Source: an uncultured Candidatus Rokubacteria bacterium
Lineage (GTDB): Bacteria > Methylomirabilota > Methylomirabilia > Rokubacteriales > CSP1-6
NCBI GenBank assembly: GCA_963789955.1
Contig: CAWBMV010000006.1
Location: 128,001 to 192,000, forward strand
Reading direction: 5' to 3'
DNA: 64,000 nt
Numbering within the stretch: position 1 is the stretch's first letter; every line of letters begins with the position of its first letter. The notes beneath the pieces were generated by a model that did not search any database, was not told where the DNA came from, and worked only from the letters and a program-made list of their open reading frames with translations. Both the position numbers and the translations under genes were made by a program. Positions 51,413-62,056 of the stretch are shown here, piece by piece.

Positions 51413-51440
51413 TTGACGCCGGGCTAGCCCGGTGTAGAAT
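51413..51440 (+). promoter_or_regulatory. Sigma70-type promoter of the isc operon
   Basis: TTGACG, 16-nt spacer, TAGAAT. Confidence 0.7.
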
Positions 51441-51473
51441 CCGACTGAATGAGTCGCCGATCAAAAGAGTCGG
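51441..51473. promoter_or_regulatory. Tandem IscR type-1-like operators
   Basis: CCGACT-GAATG-AGTCG and CCGATC-AAAAG-AGTCGG; the first matches the GACT-N5-AGTC core exactly, the second is a variant. Confidence 0.7.
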
Positions 51474-51526
51474 CGATGCGGGCCCTGCCCATGGCAAGGG
51501 ATCGGAAGAACGCGAGGGTAGAGACG

Positions 51527-51955
51527 ATGCTCCGCTTTACGAAGCGCGCCGACTACGGGCTGATGGCGATCCACTACATCGCCACGCACGATGGCCTCGG
51601 AGCCGTCAGCACCAAGCGGATCGCCGAGGAGTTCGGGATTCCGCCCGAGCTGCTCGCGAAGATCCTGCAGCGCCTCGCCAAGCGTAGGCTGATCGTCAGC
51701 CAGAACGGGCCGAAGGGCGGATACGTGCTGACGCGGCACCCCGGCGACATCACGGTCGGCGAGGTGGTCCGCGCCCTCGAGGGGCCGATCAGCATCGTGA
51801 GCTGTCTGGAGGGCCCAGGAGTGCCCGCAGGAGACGCGCTGCAATCTCAGCGGCCCGTACAGAAGCTGCAGACGGCGATCAGCCAGCTGCTCGACAACAT
51901 GAGCCTGGCCGAGCTGAGCAACCAGGACGTTCCCGAGGTTCTGTCGATCAAGTGA
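51527..51955 (+). CDS. iscR: Rrf2 family Fe-S regulator (IscR-like)
   Basis: [36 protein letters not shown] is recovered after correcting two compensating indels. Confidence 0.85.
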
Positions 51956-51992: not shown

Positions 51993-53222
51993 ATGCTGAA
52001 GTTCCCGATTTTCATGGACTCGCAGTCGACGACGCCCGTGGACCCGCGGGTCGTCGAGGCGATGCTCCCTTACTTCACCGAGAAGTTCGGACACCCGGCC
52101 AGCCGCAATCATTCGTTCGGCTGGGAGGCCGAGAACGCGGTCGATCGTGCCCGCGAGCAGATCGGCAAGATCATCGGCGCCCGGGATCCCAAGGAAGTGA
52201 TCTTCACGTCCGGCGGAACCGAGTCGATCAATCTCGCGCTCAAGGGCGTCGCCGAGATGTACCGGGAGAAGGGCAACCACATCGTCACCACGGCGATCGA
52301 GCAGCGGGCCAGCCTGGACGTCTGCAAGCGTCTGGAGCGCCAGGGCTTCGAGGTGACGTACGTGCCGGTGCGACCCGACGGCCTCGTCGAGCGTCGACGC
52401 GATCCGCCAGGCGCTCACCGACAAGACGATCCTGATCTCGGTGATGTATCGCGAACAACGAGATCGGCACGATCCAGGACATGGCCGCGATCGGCAAGCT
52501 CGCCAAGGAGAAGGGGATCATCTTCCACGCCGACGCGACCCAGGCGGTCGGCAAGATTCCGGTGAACGTCGAAGCGATGGGCATCGATCTGCTCTCGTGC
52601 ACCGCGCACCTGATCTACGGCCCCAAGGGCGTGGGCGCGCTGTACGTCCGGCGCAAGGCGCCGCGGGTGCGCATCGCGCCGCTGATCGACGGCGGCGGGC
52701 ACGAGCGGGGCATGCGTTCGGGAACGCTTCCGGTGCCGCTCATCGTGGGTTTCGGCCGCGCGGCCGAGATCTGCGGCGAGGTGATGGCCGAGGAGGGCGC
52801 GCACCTCGCGAAGCTTCGCGACCGGCTCCAGGACATGATCCTCTCGAACGTCGACGAGGCGTATCCTGAACGGCCACCCGGAGCGGCGGCTGCCGCACAA
52901 CCTGAACATCTCGTTCGCGTACGTCGAGGGCGAGTCGGTGCTGATGGGGCTCAACAAGGAGACGCGCCTTGTCCTCGGGCTCGGCCTGCACCTCGTCGAC
53001 GCTCGAGCCGTCGTACGTGATCGGCGCGCTCGGCGCGAGCGCCGAGCTGGCCCACTCGTCGATCCGCTTCAGCCTGCACCGGTTCAACGACCGAAGAGGA
53101 AGTCGAGTACGTCGGCGCGCGGACGATCGAGGTGGTCAAGCGGCTGCGCGAGATGTCGCCGCTCTACGAGCTGGCCAAGGAAGGCGTTGATCTGAAAAGC
53201 ATTCAGTTGGAAGGCTGACTAA
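51993..53222 (+). CDS. iscS: IscS-like protein lacking the PLP lysine (several frameshifts)
   Basis: [38 protein letters not shown]; but [10 protein letters not shown] and EQRASL at the PLP site. Confidence 0.88.
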
Positions 53223-53236
53223 GGGGGGCTTCGACC

Positions 53237-53647
53237 ATGGCGTATAGCGATAAGGTTGTCGACCACTACAACAACCCACGGAACGTCGGGTCCTTCACGA
53301 AGGACACTCCGGGAGTGGGTACGGGGCTCGTCGGCGCGCCGGAGTGCGGCGACGTCATGAAGCTCCAGATCAAGGTCAACCTCGACACGGGCGTCATCGA
53401 GGACGCGAAGTTCAAGACGTTCGGGTGCGGCAGCGCCATCGCGTCGTCGAGCCTGGCCACCGAGTGGCTGAAGGGCAAGACGGTCGACGAGGCCGCCAAG
53501 ATCAAGAACACCGACATCGTCAACGAGCTGAAGCTGCCGCCGGTGAAGATCCACTGCTCGGTGCTGGCCGAGGACGCGATCAAGGCGGCCCTGGCCGACT
53601 ACCGGGAGAAGAGCGCATCGGCGGACACTTCGGCGTCGTCGAAATAG
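53237..53647 (+). CDS. iscU: Fe-S scaffold IscU
   Basis: GAPECGDVM, FGCGSAIASSS, LPPVKIHCS. Confidence 0.97.
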   Translation: MAYSDKVVDHYNNPRNVGSFTKDTPGVGTGLVGAPECGDVMKLQIKVNLDTGVIEDAKFKTFGCGSAIASSSLATEWLKGKTVDEAAKIKNTDIVNELKLPPVKIHCSVLAEDAIKAALADYREKSASADTSASSK

Positions 53648-53669: not shown

Positions 53670-53998
53670 ATGGCGGTCGCACTGTCGGAAGCAGCGGCGA
53701 AGCAGGTGAAGGAGCTCAAGCAGGCGCAGAACCTGCCGGAGACCGTCTTCCTGCGCATGGGTGTCAAGGGGGGCGGGTGCTCGGGGATGTCGTACACCCT
53801 CGAGTTCGACACCGAGATCGGTCCCCACGACAAGTCTTCGAGATCGACGGCATCAAGGTCGTGGTCGACAAGAAGAGCTACCTGTACCTGAACGGCACAA
53901 CGCTCGACTACGTCCAGCAGGGGCTGACGGGTGGCTTCACCTTCGTCAACCCCAAGGCGAAGTCGAGCTGTGGATGCGGCACGTCGTTCTCGGCGTAG
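53670..53998 (+). CDS. iscA: A-type Fe-S carrier IscA (frameshift near 53832)
   Basis: GGGCSGMSY...SCGCGTSF. Confidence 0.93.
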
Positions 53999-54050: not shown

Positions 54051-54075
54051 GGGCAGGGGCGTGAAGGGGAGGGCT

Positions 54076-54656
54076 GTGGATCACTTCGAGGTCTTCGGGT
54101 TGCCGCGCCGACTCGGCATCGACACCGCCGAGCTGCAGCGAAAGTTCTACGAGCTCTCGCGCCGCGGCCATCCTGACTTCCACCAGGGCGAGACACGCCG
54201 AGCGCCAGGCGGAAATCCTCGAGGCCTCCGCGCGCCTCAACGCCGCGTACCGGGCACTGCGCGATCCGATCGCCCGTGTCGAGTACCTGGTCCGCCTCGA
54301 AGAAGGGCGCAAGACGCGCGAAGGCGCCACGGTGAAGCCGAAGGCACCGCCCGAGCTGCTCGCAGAGATGTTCGAGATCCAGGAGAGCGCTCCAGGAGGC
54401 CAAGTCCGCCGGCAGCGGCTGGACGACGCCGACGCGCAGCAGACGCTCGTCGCCCAGCGCGACCGGCTCCGGGCGCGCTACGAGCAGGAAGAGGCTCGGC
54501 TGCGTGGGCCGCTCAGCCAGGCGTGGGACGCGGCCGCGGCCGCTGAACGCGCGGCGGCGCTCAACGCCTTCAAAGACGTCGCTGGCGGACGCGGGCCTAT
54601 CTGCGGACCGTGATCGACGACATCGACGAAGCGCTCGGAGACATCGCAGGAGACCC

Positions 54657-54679
<23 letters not shown>
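54076..54679 (+). CDS. hscB: Fe-S co-chaperone HscB (frameshifted; end approximate)
   Basis: DHFEVFGLP...HPDF J-domain, [16 protein letters not shown]; position in operon. Confidence 0.85.
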
Positions 54680-56493
<1,814 letters not shown>

Positions 56494-56494
<1 letters not shown>

Positions 56495-56817
56495 TGGCGG
56501 TCCACAAGGTGACGTTCCTGCCGCTCAACGTGACCGTCGAGGTCGACGACGAGAAGTACCCGCTCGCCGACCACGGCAAGCCCGGGTCGCTGCTGGACAT
56601 CGCGCTGGCCAACGACATCCATCTCGAGCACAACTGCGGCGGAAGCTGTGCCTGCACGACCTGCCATGTGATCGTGAGGGAGGGCGAGGAGAACCTCTCG
56701 GACATGCAGCCGGACGAAGAGGACCGGCTCGACACGGCCGAGGGGCTCACGATCCACTCGCGGCTGGGCTGTCAGGCGGTCGTGCGCGGCAACGTCGTCG
56801 TGGAGATCCCCAAGTGA
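56494..56817 (+). CDS. fdx: ISC-type [2Fe-2S] ferredoxin
   Basis: [15 protein letters not shown]...SRLGCQ; own GGAG SD. Confidence 0.93.
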
Positions 56818-57017
56818 TCAAGTGGCGGGACTACGAGGACATCGCGATCGCGCTCAGCGAGGGCCATCCGGATCTCGATCCGCTGACGGTCCGGTTCACC
56901 GATCTCCACCGCTGGGTGACCGAGCTTCCCGGCTTCACCGACGACCCGAAGGGGTCCAACGAGAAGATCCTCGAGGCGATCCAGATGGCCTGGCTGGACG
57001 AATACCGGAACCGATGA
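56814..57017 (+). CDS. iscX: Fe-S assembly protein IscX
   Basis: [12 protein letters not shown]...[10 protein letters not shown]...[12 protein letters not shown]. Confidence 0.93.
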
Positions 57018-57040: not shown

Positions 57041-57268
57041 CTACCAGGTCACGACCTGGTCGGCCTCGAAGATCAGCTCGAGCAGCTGACCGTACGAGAG
57101 GTCGCCGTCGAGGCGGCGCACCGTCGCGCCCGCCGGCAGACCGGACGCGGCGCCGCCCGGCAGGACGACGACCGTGACGCGATCGCCGCGCCGCGCAGAT
57201 GGTGATCGACCACGGTCCACGGCGAGCGTGGTGTCCGAACCCTTGACCAGATGGAGCACCGCGGCCAT
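57041..57268 (-). CDS. Small DsrH/TusB-like protein
   Basis: VLHLVK N-terminus; LSYGQLLELIFEADQVVTW C-terminus. Confidence 0.6.
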   Translation of the reverse strand: MAAVLHLVKGSDTTLAVDRGRSPSARRGDRVTVVVLPGGAASGLPAGATVRRLDGDLSYGQLLELIFEADQVVTW

Positions 57269-57624
57269 CAGAACACCAGGAACCGGCGGCCGCGCTGGAC
57301 GAGGGCGGCGATCTCGTCGCGGGTCACCGGAATGACGGCGTGGCCGTCGGCGTTCCAGCTCGCGTCGGTCGGCACGGCGTCCTTCTCGACGTGGAACGGC
57401 ACGCCGAGCGATTTGAGGTTCGCCCGGAACTTCGCGATCTCGTCGCCGTCGACGAGCTCGTCGGTGTCCTCGTCGAGCAGGTGGACGCCGGCGCCCAGCA
57501 GCACGAAGGTGACGTCGTTCTCGCCCGCGACGACGCCGAGGCCGATGCGCATCGCCTCGTTCGCGCGATGGGACACGCGCGGGTCCGTCGAGATGAGGAC
57601 GATGACCGGCGGGCTGGCGATCAC
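57268..57624 (-). CDS. DsrF/TusC-like protein
   Basis: ISTDP...RANEAMRIGLG...FVLLGAGV...FLVF; middle gene of the triad. Confidence 0.65.
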   Translation of the reverse strand: MIASPPVIVLISTDPRVSHRANEAMRIGLGVVAGENDVTFVLLGAGVHLLDEDTDELVDGDEIAKFRANLKSLGVPFHVEKDAVPTDASWNADGHAVIPVTRDEIAALVQRGRRFLVF

Positions 57625-57629
57625 GGAGA

Positions 57630-57954
57630 TCAGTTGAGCGCGATGAACCGGTCGGTGGCGTTGATCAGGTCGGTCAGGACGACGAGGCCGCAGTAGGTCA
57701 CGCGTGTCGGCGTCGCGCAGAGGGATACGACGCTTCTGGCAGCCGTAGGCGCACACGAACAGCTTGGCGCCGCGCTCCGGCAGGGCGCGAACGCGCGGAT
57801 CGTCCAGCGCGGTGACTCCGTCGTCGATGAGGTACAGGTAGAGATCCGCGCCGCGCTCGAGCGCCGCGCTCGAGAGACCGACGGCCGTCTCGAGGTTCGG
57901 ATGATCGCGCCCCGTGGACAGCAGAACGCCGAGCTTCTTCTTCGCGAGGTCCAT
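57630..57954 (-). CDS. DsrE/TusD-like sulfur carrier (frameshift near 57705)
   Basis: YLYLIDDGV, LFVCAYGCQKRR, then CGLVVLTDLINATDRFIALN in the shifted frame. Confidence 0.78.
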
Positions 57955-57996
57955 CGCGGATCGAGCGTAGCATCGTAAAAAATGGAGAGCAAGCCG

Positions 57997-59154
57997 ATGA
58001 GCCGTCGAGTGTACCTGGATTACAACGCGTCGACCCCCGTCCATCCGGAAGTGCTCGCCGAGATGCTGCCGTACTTCGCGGACGTCTACGGCAATCCGTC
58101 GAGCATCCACGGGTTCGGGCGTGAGGCGCGCGAAGGCATGGACCTGGCGCGCGAGCGGGTCGCGAAGTTCCTGAAGGTGGCGAGCCAGGAGATCGTCTTC
58201 ACCTCCGGCGGGACCGAGTCGGACAATTTCGCGGTGAAGGGGCTCGCGCTCGCCAAGGGCAGGGGCCACCTCATCACCTCGCAGGTCGAGCACCACGCGG
58301 TGCTCCGCGCGTGCCGGGCGCTCGAGGCCCAGGGCTTCGGCCTGACCTGCCTCGGCGTCGACGAGCACGGCATGGTCGACCCCGACGAGGTGCGGCGCGC
58401 GATTCGCCCGGACACCCTGGCGATCAGCATCATGCACGCCAACAGCGAGGTCGGCACGCTCCAGCCGATCGAGGCGATCGGCCGTATCGCGCGCGAGCAC
58501 GGCGTGCCGTTCCATGTCGACGCGGTGCAGACCTTCGGCAAGCTGCCGATCGACCTCGACCTGCTCGGCATCGACATGCTGTCGTTCTCGGCCCACAAGA
58601 TCTACGGGCCGAAGGGCGCGGCCGGGCTCTACATCCGCAAGGGCACCAAGATGGTCGCGGTCCAGCACGGCGGCGAGCACGAGCGGCGCCGGCGCGCGGG
58701 CACCGAGAACGTGGCGGGCATCGTCGGGCTCGGCAAGGCGGTGGAAGTGCGGGCCCGCGACATGGCCGCGGAGGCCGAGCGGCTGACGGGCCTCCGCGAT
58801 CGGCTCTGGAACGGGATTCGCGAGCGCGTGCCCGACGTGAAGCTGTCCGGCCACCCGACCAAGCGGCTCCCGGGTACCGCGAGCCTGCTCTTCCGCCACG
58901 TCGAGTCCGAGTCGATCGTGCTCGGCCTCGACCTGAAGGGGATCGGCGTCTCGGCCGGCTCGGCGTGCACCTCCGGCAACGTCGAACCGTCGCACGTCCT
59001 GGTCGCGATGGGCGTCGCGGTCGACTGGGCCATGGGCGCAGTCCGATGCTCGCTCGGACGCTCGACCAGCGCCGACGACATCGACTACGTCGTCGCGTGC
59101 GTCGAGCCGCTCGTCAAGAAGCTCCGGCAGGCGATGCCGGTCGGCGCGGCATGA
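57997..59154 (+). CDS. Canonical class I cysteine desulfurase (NifS/IscS-like)
   Basis: [35 protein letters not shown] all intact. Confidence 0.95.
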
Positions 59155-59185
59155 GCGGTCGCCCCCGGCCGGAGCGAGGCTGACG

Positions 59186-59848
59186 GTGTTCGCGGAGCTC
59201 CGGCGCGACATCCAGGCGGTGCGTGATCGGGACCCCGCCGCGCGCTCCACGCTCGAGGTGCTGCTCTGCTATCCGGGTGTCCACGCGCTCGCGTGCCATC
59301 GGTTCGCGCACGCGATCTGGCGGCGCGGCTGGAAGATCCCCGCGCGCTTCCTGTCTCACATCGCCCGGTTCTTCACCGGCATCGAGATCCATCCCGCGGC
59401 CAAGCTCGGGCCCGGCCTCTTCATCGACCACGGCATGGGCGTCGTCATCGGCGAGACCGCCGAGGTCGGGGAGAACGTCACCCTGCTCCAGGGCGTGACG
59501 CTCGGCGGCACGAGCCTCAAGCGGGAGAAGCGCCATCCGACCCTCGGCGACAACGTCGTCGTCGGCGCCGGCGCCAAGATCATCGGCGCGTTCAAGATCG
59601 GGGACGGCAGCCGCATCGGCGCCGGCTCGGTCGTCGTCCGCGAGGTGCCGACGAACTCCGTTGTCGTGGGCGTTCCGGGCCGGGTAACATATCGGGACGG
59701 TCAGCGGGTGGCCGGCGGGATCGATCTGGATCAGACCGATCTGCCGGACCCCGTGAGCAAGGCCATCGAGCAGCTCGTCGAGCGGATTCGAGCTCTCGAG
59801 GACGAGCTCGAGACGGTGAAAAAGAAAGTCGAGGAGGAACACGCGTGA
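59186..59848 (+). CDS. cysE: Serine O-acetyltransferase
   Basis: [33 protein letters not shown]. Confidence 0.95.
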
Positions 59849-60024
59849 ACCCCAAGGACATGCTGAGCCTCAAGGAAGCGTCGACGTATCTCGGCATGGA
59901 TGAGCGCGCGCTCGCGTCGCTCGCCACCGAGCGGCGCATCCCGTCGTTGCAGCTCGACGGCGCCTGGATGTTCTCCAAGAAGTCGATCGACAAGTGGCGG
60001 GGTCAGCAGACGCCACGCCCGTGA
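59845..60024 (+). CDS. Small HTH_17/excisionase-like DNA-binding protein
   Basis: [13 protein letters not shown]...[20 protein letters not shown]. Confidence 0.8.
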
Positions 60025-60585
60025 TCTCGCGCGACGAGGCCTGGTCCGTCCTCACCGAGTTCACCAAGAGCGATAGTCTCCGCAAGCACGCCCGCGCCGT
60101 CGAAGCCTCGATGCGCGCCTACGCCGGCCGTTACGGCGAGGACCCGGACGCGTGGGGCGTGACCGGCATGCTCCACGACTTCGACTACGAGATGCACCCG
60201 CGCGCGCCGCATCACCCCATCAAGGGCGCCGAGATCTTGATATCGCGCGGCGTGTCCGAGCCGATCGTGCACGCGATCCTGGCCCACGCCGACTATTCCG
60301 GCGTGCCGCGCGTCTCGCGCCTCGACAAGGCTCTCTACGCCTGCGACGAGCTCTCCGGCTTCGTGCACGCGGTGCGCCCTGGTCCGGCCCGGCCGGGTGA
60401 TCACCGGGCTCGAGCCGCCTTCGGTCAAGAAGAAGCTCAAGGACAAGGCGTTCGCCCGCACCGTGAACCGCGACGACGTCTACCGCGGCGCGACCGAGCT
60501 CGGCGTCGATCTCGACGCCCACATCGCCTTCGTCATCGCCGCCCTCACCGAAGTCGCCCCCGAAATCGGCCTCGCCCGCACCTGA
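60021..60585 (+). CDS. HD-domain (HDIG) metal-dependent hydrolase (frameshift near 60372)
   Basis: SLRKH, GMLHDFDYE, ACDELSGF, KKLKDKAFARTVNRDD. Confidence 0.88.
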
Positions 60586-60715
60586 CCCGAGCGAGGCTGA
60601 GTAACGCCTCCCGATGCCTAGGCCACGACCCCCGAGGTGCCGATCGCACCCGCCGCCGGGCGGGACGTACAGACAAGGCCAACGGGATGCGCGCGCGACG
60701 CGCGTGATCAGGATT

Positions 60716-60864
60716 GCGTGCGGGGTGGGCCGGGGGCGGGGGCCCCTTCCGTGACCCGTGTAGTCAGGGTCGATCTCGATATACGCGCGTCGTACGACGA
60801 CGCCGCGGGCTGTCCGCTAGCGTGGTCGCGGAAGGGGCCCCCGCCCTCGGCCCGCCCCGCACGC
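60716..60864. repeat. 41-bp imperfect inverted repeat enclosing 67 nt
   Basis: Arms 60716-60756 and 60824-60864 differ at 3 positions, all of which form G-U pairs on the + strand. Confidence 0.9.
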
Positions 60865-60870
60865 CGCGCC

Positions 60871-62056
60871 ATGACCGCGCGCGACGAGAGCGATCACACA
60901 CGTCGACATGGACGCCTTCTACGCGGCGGTCGAGCAGCGCGACCGCCCCGAGCTGCGCGGACGGCCCGTGATCGTGGGCGCGAGCCCGACGGGCCGCGGC
61001 GTCGTCTCGGCCGCGTCGTACGAGGCGCGAACGTTCGGCGTGCGCTCCGCGATGCCGATCGGCCGCGCGGCGCGGCTCTGCCCGGAAGGGGCCTTTCTTC
61101 CGGTGGACATGGAGAAATACCAGCGCGTCTCCGTCCAGATCATGGGCATCCTGGCCGACTTCTCGCCGCTCGTCGAGCCGGTCTCCGTCGACGAGGCGTT
61201 CGTCGATCTCACGGGCACCGAGTCGCTCTTCGGAAGCCCGGTGGACGCGGTGCGCCAGATCAAGCGGCGGATCCACGCCGAGACCCGCCTCACGGCGTCG
61301 GCGGGGCTCGCCGCCAACAAGTTCGTCGCGAAGGTGGCGTCCGACCTCGAAAAGCCTGACGGCCTCGTCGTCGTCGCGGCCGGTGACGAGGCGCGATTCC
61401 TCGGCGCCTTGCCGATCGAGCGGCTCTGGGGCGTCGGCAAGGTGATGGCGAAGGAGCTGCGCGAGCTCGGCTTCGCGACGATCGGCCAGCTCCAGAAGGC
61501 GCCGCGGGCCGTGCTCGCCAAGCGGTTCGGCAAGCACGGCGATGGGCTCTACGACCTGGCCTACGGACGCGACGACCGGGCGGTCGAGCCGTTCGGCGTG
61601 CCCAAGTCGATCGGCGCCGAGGAGACCTTCGGCGCCGACTGTACGGATCACGAAAAGCTCCGGACCACCCTGCGCGCTCACGCGGAGCGCGTGGCCGCCG
61701 AGCTGAGAGACGGGGGCTACGCGGCCGGCCGCATCACCGTGAAGCTTCGACTCGCCCCATTCGAGACGCACACCCGCAGCATCACCGGCGAGCCGACCCA
61801 GGACGGCCTCGAGCTCTACCGCCGCGCCCTGGCGCTGCTCGAGCGCGATCCCGTGACGCGACCCGTCCGCCTCATCGGGCTTTCCGCGGGTCGCCTCGGC
61901 CCGGCGGGCGCGGGCCAGCTCGATCTGCTGGATCCCGCGGCGCTACGACGTGAGCGGCTGGCTCGCGTGGTCGACCGGCTGACGGCTCGATTCGGAGAGG
62001 GCGCGGTAGTCCCCGCGACCTTGCTGGGGCGACGGCGCCACCACGACGACGACTGA
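60871..62056 (+). CDS. dinB: DNA polymerase IV (N-terminal frameshift)
   Basis: HVDMDAFYAAVE, SYEARTFGV, SVDEAF, AKVASDLEKPDG, RLIGL. Confidence 0.93.

Follow-up and report, generated by a model that had tools for sequence, protein, structure and literature searches.

A complete isc operon of Rokubacteriales encodes an IscS homologue that lacks the Schiff-base lysine and is predicted to be inactive as a desulfurase

The window analyzed here, i.e., the whole stretch of 64,000 nucleotides from an uncultured Candidatus Rokubacteria bacterium, contains an isc operon in which the iscS product, denoted IscS*, carries leucine and glutamine in place of the lysine that forms the Schiff base with PLP and the histidine that stacks on this cofactor, and retains the persulfide cysteine. 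We propose, at a probability of about 0.55, that IscS* is a non-catalytic docking and persulfide-relay subunit that would be fed by a paralog, the prime candidate being the desulfurase IscS2 encoded nearby. The features of the IscS* gene are as follows.

51993..53222, plus strand: IscS*, cysteine desulfurase homologue of the ISC type (K206L, H104Q), its window copy bearing six 1-nt insertions from assembly
52302..52304, plus strand: CAG codon of Gln104, replacing the PLP-stacking His104 (IEQRAS; by alignment to E. coli IscS)
52610..52612, plus strand: CTG codon of Leu206, replacing the Schiff-base Lys206 (TAHL; by alignment to E. coli IscS)
52987..52989, plus strand: TGC codon of Cys331 (E. 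coli Cys328), the retained persulfide/loop cysteine (SSGSACTS)

In an HMMER alignment of the intact ortholog from the relative genome G013 with E. coli IscS (1P3W), Gln falls on His104 and Leu on Lys206, gap-free at both sites; the same alignment maps T244, C331 and R357 of IscS* to T243, C328 and R354 of the E. coli protein. A first-pass annotation of this DNA had reported both substitutions and held that they were not indel artefacts. The alignment and the orthologs confirm the codons: both sit within in-frame segments, and the same residues occur in intact frames of relatives, which rules out an indel or sequencing artefact at codons 104 and 206. That annotation left unstated that the interval 51993-53222 as a whole is a broken reading frame that does not translate in one frame. 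Compared with orthologs (9 of 9 aligned), it contains six single-base insertions, near 52392, 52448, 52864, 52963, 53086-89 and 53205-07. All six are absent from the assembled contigs of near relatives in four public soil runs (two are Illumina RNA libraries and two have no library on record; the RNA runs contain the locus as assembled contigs only), and the best-supported 40 of the 147 differences from these contigs include none at codons 104 and 206. Relative to G013, 39 frameshifting indels, which include some compensating pairs where the sequences diverge, are found in 11.6 kb and hit 10 of the 18 neighbouring genes; they are unevenly distributed, with none in iscU, iscS2, cysE and dinB. 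The rpoB and gyrA genes are also split in the source genome and whole in G013. Given this and the absence of the six IscS* insertions from the near-relative contigs, these insertions are assembly errors; because the window copy is error-prone, the protein analyses were performed on the G013 ortholog (407 aa, ~90% DNA identity; L171:2585-3808). Single-base indels are frequent in the source genome in general, and other broken genes found in it are best treated as likely assembly errors.

Among the best 120 of 7,989 database matches, Leu206 is present in 120 of 120, and Gln104 and the loop Cys in 119 of 120 each; the possibility, entertained in the first-pass annotation, that orthologs keep Lys and His is thus not borne out in this set, whose members are labelled plain cysteine desulfurase or IscS by their sources. 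The named relatives of the locus are Candidatus Rokubacteria (Methylomirabilota). In the 80 loci returned by the locus search, all 18 Rokubacterial ones combine Gln104 with Leu or Met206, and the other 62 (from Acidobacteriota, Nitrospirota and more) all have His and Lys. Across 50 genes of the Lys-less clade, position 206 is Leu in 80% and Met in 20%, with Gln104 and the loop Cys in 50 of 50. In a 129-row tree that contains no row of the Archaeoglobus fulgidus type, IscS* nests among Lys-bearing ISC-type IscS: the Rokubacteriales proteins form one clade (63 rows, SH-aLRT 100), inside which the Lys-less clade is nested (51 rows, families f1 and f5, support 92), and the sister families retain Lys206, with six of their rows retaining His104 as well. 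The codon counts at position 206 (60 rows parsed: AAG 12, ATG 9, CTG 24, CTC 14, TTG 1) suggest that the two-step change probably ran AAG-ATG-CTG. Several early-branching members of the Lys-less clade have Met206 (ATG), one step from AAG; the Met206 rows do not form a single basal group.

Six rows of one genus, g14 (L156, L157, L168, L169, L028, L029), have Gln104 and Glu183 and retain Lys206, so that H104Q with Q183E is probably a second inactivation within the order. The natural variant series comprises His+Lys, Gln+Lys+Glu183, Gln+Met and Gln+Leu. The trees favour two origins of H104Q, placing g14 inside family f4 with support of 97 when the trait columns are removed; the AU test does not reject a single origin (p-AU 0.079), and a 40-row tree left the backbone order open. 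Four substitutions that are common to the whole order, Asn to His34, Gly to His361, Tyr9 to Ser/Ala and Lys105 to Arg, predate the loss of Lys, and His34 falls in the modelled dimer interface.

The G013 ortholog scores 604.6 bits against the NF010611 profile (cut-off 548) and 593.5 bits against TIGR02006, below the cut-off of 643.2. The best sequence and fold matches are E. coli IscS (PDB 1P3W, 3LVL; E 1e-145) and human NFS1, the top Foldseek matches of the structural model (TM about 0.85-0.89; model pLDDT 76). The pLDDT is below 50 at the N-terminus, in residues 33-42 and 230-244 and in the Cys loop, so that the monomer model is uninformative on His34/His361 and on pocket geometry. IscS* is also like E. 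coli IscS in its operon context, its IscU, Fdx and IscX surfaces and its Cys loop, and differs from it in the replacement of K206 and H104, reported as essential (PMC9978102), and in the order-wide changes (N35H, G358H, Y9S/A and K105R in E. coli terms). The E. coli variants H104Q, K206A and Q183E are each reported to have no desulfurase activity, to retain some PLP and to accumulate Cys-ketimine-like species (PMC9978102). By analogy with these mutants, IscS* is predicted to be unable to cleave cysteine.

An inactive, B6-bound IscS without the lysine has been described in A. fulgidus, where the IscS Cys ligates the [2Fe-2S] cluster in the IscS-IscU structure (PMC8918507, PMC7585200) and where the sulfur source of the inactive pair is stated as an open question (PMC8918507). 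IscS* resembles this protein (PDB 4EB5, 4EB7, 4HVK; D199K variant 4R5F) in its group I fold, the lost Schiff-base Lys, the retained loop Cys and the partnership with IscU, the IscS* gene adjoining iscU. In contrast, A. fulgidus IscS is shorter (382 residues) and has Asp in an SSND motif (ISSNDIYGPKG), whereas IscS* has Leu or Met in TAHL or TAHM, has lost His104 as well, and retains H205, Q183 and R357. IscS* is an ISC-type protein (above the NF010611 cut-off) encoded in a full iscR-S-U-A-hscBA-fdx-iscX operon with an intact desulfurase alongside, and most of the host genomes searched, unlike that of the sulfate reducer A. fulgidus, have no dsrA. In the HMMER comparison with the G013 ortholog, the A. 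fulgidus chains score 370 bits and E. coli IscS 488 bits. The TAHL motif, these scores and the identity of the SSND protein as another gene rule out membership of IscS* in the A. fulgidus Lys-to-Asp lineage. Because the source genome encodes its A. fulgidus-type member separately (on contig C37, with SSND), IscS* appears to represent a separate, convergent loss of Lys within the canonical ISC family, and the comparison with A. fulgidus made in the first-pass annotation holds as an analogy and fails as kinship. Methanosarcina acetivorans IscS1 is likewise a Lys-less IscS paralog beside an active IscS2 in one genome; it is described as uncharacterised and belongs to an archaeal minimal iscSU cluster (PMC7585200), as opposed to a full bacterial operon. 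The matches listed in a search of the open-access literature contain no description of the Rokubacterial protein.

The IscS* gene is under purifying selection. The dN/dS ratio is 0.084, with a maximum of 0.128 for any pair (NG86, 11 same-genus genes, 55 pairs; a rough estimate with GC3 near 0.9), and neutral decay, which the first-pass annotation had named as a possibility to be checked in this way, is ruled out by the value of ~0.08. Where both genes are present (30 Lys-less loci), IscS* shows higher conservation than IscS2 in 423 of the 435 non-independent pairs, with identities of 82.5% and 76.4%, respectively. The segments EGESV (311-315) and RLR-MSP (382-388), R219, R220, R224, R226, R238, W44 and the SGSACT loop occur without exception (100%) in 50 Lys-less genes, in agreement with the earlier observation that the persulfide-Cys loop and the C-terminal tail are intact. 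The conserved positions match the IscU and IscX/CyaY surfaces and part of the TusA surface as defined in PMC2854127; E49 of the TusA site is not conserved in the same 50 genes. IscU docks on the C-terminal domain of IscS, and IscS without residues 376-404 fails to bind it (PMC2854127).

The remaining residues of the cofactor pocket, T76, N155, D180, Q183, T203, H205, T244 and R357, are invariant (120 of 120, in the best 120 of 7,989 matches), which argues that IscS* probably still binds a B6 vitamer non-covalently; A. fulgidus IscS is reported to hold PMP (PMC8918507). The first-pass description of IscS* as PLP-independent is a fair one for the chemistry and probably does not extend to a cofactor-free protein, given the invariant pocket and the B6 held by both E. 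coli K206A and A. fulgidus IscS.

The remaining features of the isc operon and its control region are the following.

51413..51440, plus strand: sigma-70-like promoter, TTGACG-16-TAGAAT, a consensus match only (1 found versus a mean of 0.4 in shuffles)
51442..51456, no strand: palindrome CGACT-N5-AGTCG, directly past the -10 box, candidate operator
51527..51955, plus strand: Rrf2-family regulator in the iscR position (TIGR00738, 120.6 bits over 73.3; below the cut-off of the IscR equivalog; frameshifted in the assembly)
53237..53647, plus strand: iscU, canonical scaffold with three Cys and LPPVK (TIGR01999, 217 bits over 192.4)
53670..53998, plus strand: iscA-type carrier (identified through the G023 ortholog; one frameshift in the assembly)
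54060..54679, plus strand: hscB-like co-chaperone (named by position and sequence; start approximate; frameshifted in the assembly)
54657..56494, plus strand: hscA-like Hsp70 chaperone (named by position and sequence; frameshifted in the assembly)
56494..56817, plus strand: ISC-type 2Fe-2S ferredoxin, fdx (best match TIGR02007, below cut-off)
56817..57017, plus strand: iscX (TIGR03412, 111.8 bits over 40.4; start approximate)

The gene order (promoter/palindrome, iscR-like, iscS*, iscU, iscA, hscB, hscA, fdx, iscX), together with the profile matches, the conservation and the signs of selection, supports the first-pass reading of a pseudo-desulfurase inside a complete isc operon. All three Cys of IscU are present in 32 of 32 loci. 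A GAC[TC]-N4-6-[AG]GTC pattern is found 5' of iscR in 49 of 57 Rokubacteriales loci, and the palindrome is the probable operator of the Rrf2/IscR-like regulator. Two copies of a near-direct repeat, GAGTCG-C/G-CGAT, 16 nt apart, also lie past the -10 box (51442-51477) and are possibly a second half-site for a regulator.

Downstream of iscX lies a second module of sulfur-related genes.

57041..57268, minus strand: small gene in the DsrH/TusB position, without Pfam or NCBIfam match and named from position only
57268..57624, minus strand: DsrE/F-family protein without Cys, DsrF/TusC-like (PF02635, 25.6 bits over 22.7)
57630..57954, minus strand: DsrE-family protein with three conserved Cys, candidate persulfide carrier (PF02635, 26.7 bits for the G023 ortholog)
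57982..59154, plus strand: IscS2, intact NifS/MisS-type cysteine desulfurase, the proposed sulfur donor (second possible start at 57997)
59186..59848, plus strand: cysE, serine O-acetyltransferase of cysteine synthesis, directly 3' of iscS2 (TIGR01172, 240 bits over 210.65)

The iscS2 gene is located ~5-6 kb 3' of iscS*; its product scores best against TIGR03402 (506 bits, just under the cut-off), and all copies inspected carry the His, Lys and Cys. The protein has neither the last C-terminal helix nor the PRVR basic patch; it retains an ESES helix and terminates at an LR..MP-like motif. The genes for IscS2 and the DsrE/F-like proteins are linked to isc in 33 of 33 long Rokubacteriales loci (28 Lys-less and 5 Lys-keeping; 2 short loci omitted) and in none of 46 long outgroup loci (5 short omitted; the queries were Rokubacterial, and distant homologues may be missed). 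The first-pass proposal of the enzyme at 57997 as the sulfur donor fits this fixed linkage. Loci of the Lys-keeping sister family share the linkage, which therefore predates the loss of Lys. Among genomes of at least 90% completeness, IscS2 is found in 79 of 83 from family f1 and 13 of 14 from f4. Within the DsrE-like trio (57041-57954), the Cys-bearing protein contains a CAYGC motif plus a third conserved Cys; Cys68 and Cys72 are present in 31 of 31 sequences and Cys88 in 30 of 31. That these genes take part in a classical TusA-TusBCD-TusE relay is unsupported, as DsrC/TusE was not found in the source genome (87% complete).

An IscU-like gene, iscU2, follows iscS2 in 29 of the 33 long loci and is missing from 4 of them; it is also missing from the window between 59154 and 59186. 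The third Cys of IscU2 is replaced by Ala in 24 of 24 rows that reach this position (7 of 31 rows are truncated); the protein (L169:10018-10404 and equivalents) retains Cys, Asp, Cys and His, and may be a SufU-like Zn/persulfide shuttle and not a scaffold. The locus thus looks like a case of complementary degeneration, with a dead IscS* and an intact IscU on one side and a live IscS2 and a defective or lost IscU2 on the other. Past cysE (59845-62056), the window contains a small helix-turn-helix gene, an HD-domain gene and a dinB-like polymerase gene, the last of which stays near the locus in the four relatives listed.

Elsewhere in the source genome, SufB/D was not found (87% complete). SufB/D was found in only 19 of 83 f1 genomes (and 5 of 14 f4 genomes), so that ISC is usually the sole complete scaffold system found; the further notion that it is the sole IscU system has to be qualified, since most relatives carry iscU2, though without the third Cys. 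The source genome also encodes a SufS with Lys and a SufU-like protein, an alternative donor candidate. The sufS gene (frameshifted in the assembly, Lys retained) and the sufU-like gene lie at L131:8818-10399 (C37 about 58800-60400, minus strand), next to agmatinase-like and XdhC-like genes, names that come from sequence appearance only. A third group I paralog, at C37:452949-454154, has Asn-Asp in place of His-Lys, with the motif SSND (TLSSNDLY), and has lost Q183, H205 and R354; the Asn-Asp pair is found in 40 of 40 Rokubacteriales loci, the source genome included, and tusA adjoins the gene in 39 of the 40. In the source genome, a tusA-like gene (PF01206) directly precedes this Lys-to-Asp paralog (L130:8950-10351 = C37:452949-454350, minus strand). 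In 9 genomes that belong to other orders, the second paralogs retain His-Lys, and tusA was not found near them. Genes resembling cofD, cofC and cofE of F420 biosynthesis and an F420-dependent NADP oxidoreductase gene, again named from sequence appearance, adjoin the tusA-linked paralog at L130:4400-7800 (C37 about 448400-451800).

Under the scheme that we favour, IscS* would dock IscU, Fdx and IscX as normal IscS does, probably with PLP or PMP bound non-covalently in a structural role, and Cys331 would accept a persulfide from another enzyme, most likely IscS2, and hand it to IscU. Delivery may proceed through an IscS*:IscS2 heterodimer or through carriers, namely the DsrE-like protein, the Cys-deficient IscU2 or TusA. 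Within this scheme, the loss of catalysis is predicted from the E. coli mutant data and docking from conservation, and we infer the donor and the route. A model of the IscS*:IscS2 dimer scores 0.94, versus 0.22 for the best of three controls, with at least 98% of contacts agreeing between runs and a partner pLDDT of 92; among solved complexes, 51 of 78 attain the mark used for such models, as do 2 of 108 mismatches. Given that each chain is similar to IscS homodimers of known structure, this score indicates likeness and compatibility, not binding. IscU is loaded by the loop of the same IscS subunit. A heterodimer alone therefore does not explain how sulfur reaches Cys331, and a carrier or a loop-to-loop step would be needed; a carrier step through the DsrE-like protein, IscU2 or TusA is as likely as the heterodimer route. 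Several observations count against this scheme. The TusA-site E49 is not conserved in IscS*, IscS2, whose gene lies beside cysE and the DsrE-like genes, may serve mainly tRNA thiolation or cofactors, SufS with SufU is an alternative donor in the same genome, and the totally conserved substrate-binding N155 and R357 exceed the needs of a pure platform. Furthermore, the linkage is older than the loss of Lys and hence is no proof of dependence.

Without any relay, IscS* might act solely as a platform that stabilises IscU and recruits Fdx and IscX. Cys331 would then ligate the cluster transiently, and IscU would receive its sulfur straight from IscS2 or SufS/SufU. Such a role, with the Cys as a [2Fe-2S] ligand in the IscS-IscU structure, has been proposed for A. 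fulgidus IscS (PMC8918507, PMC7585200), IscU that is already loaded with persulfide is reported to be competent for cluster assembly (PMC9769115), and IscS2 retains the ESES helix and the LR..MP-like end. However, the last C-terminal helix and the PRVR patch are missing from IscS2, and loss of 376-404 abolishes IscU binding by IscS (PMC2854127); an IscU-bound IscS* would also be expected to block the surface that another desulfurase needs. We regard this solution as unlikely, though worth serious consideration.

Somewhat less probable still is that the pocket of IscS* performs altered B6 chemistry or senses cysteine, with non-covalent PLP and a stalled Cys-PLP aldimine or ketimine, resulting in slow turnover or in gating of ISC assembly by cysteine supply. 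This would account for the invariance of the rest of the pocket, including the carboxylate-binding N155 and R357 (120 of 120, best 120 of 7,989), as opposed to the A. fulgidus-type paralog of the same genomes, which lost Q183, H205 and R354, and it accords with the order-wide new His34 and His361 and with the Cys-ketimine-like species that accumulate in E. coli H104Q and K206A (PMC9978102). Yet the same variants have no desulfurase activity (PMC9978102), a replacement base is not identified, and the interchange of Leu and Met at position 206 fits a packing role.

The first-pass annotation had concluded that this pseudo-desulfurase must receive sulfur from elsewhere or use sulfide directly. The former part stands, and the latter is disfavoured: that IscS*-IscU builds clusters from free sulfide is improbable, even though this hypothesis has been published for A. 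fulgidus IscS (PMC8918507), abbreviated systems are reported to be able to use sulfide (PMC13066941) and cysE points to available assimilatory sulfide. Only 4 of 83 f1 genomes contain dsrA-like matches, of which none exceeds the cut-off, and the source genome yielded no such match; the runs that contain the window DNA are mostly soil metagenomes; and Fdx, the likely persulfide reductant (PMC9769115), is retained along with its binding patch. Finally, an artefact or a decaying pseudogene, to which the six frameshifts of the window copy and their uneven distribution over the region (iscU, iscS2, cysE and dinB are free of them) might point, is highly improbable and already refuted at the clade level by the dozens of genomes in which unbroken frames carry these substitutions, the dN/dS of ~0.08, the lack of the insertions in near-relative contigs and the similarly split rpoB and gyrA.

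Extending the relay through IscS*, we tentatively consider a doubtful but possible arrangement in which Rokubacteriales split their sulfur traffic between the catalytic IscS2 and two dead adaptors, IscS* for IscU and the Lys-to-Asp paralog for TusA. The adaptors would be paired with IscS2 in heterodimers or loaded by carriers, and sulfur would be routed by the choice of the pseudoenzyme subunit and not by competition on one IscS.

In the ISC system, IscS is regarded as the obligatory source of sulfur, and homologues of IscS* are annotated as ordinary cysteine desulfurases. Judging from sequence, a whole bacterial family appears to possess a complete, apparently regulated ISC operon with an IscS that is predicted to be inactive, usually without a SUF scaffold as backup. 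The concept of a dead IscS is already known; what is new is its independent origin in a full ISC operon across a large, mostly SUF-less soil lineage, with complementary degeneration of the neighbouring module. The locus offers named candidate donors and carriers in a host that is not a sulfate reducer and, together with the natural variant series, these make the question of the sulfur source testable with a few soluble proteins. If the proposed split of sulfur traffic between IscS2 and two adaptors is true, an ISC system routed by a pseudoenzyme would be a general answer to the problem of how dead IscS paralogs are supplied with sulfur.
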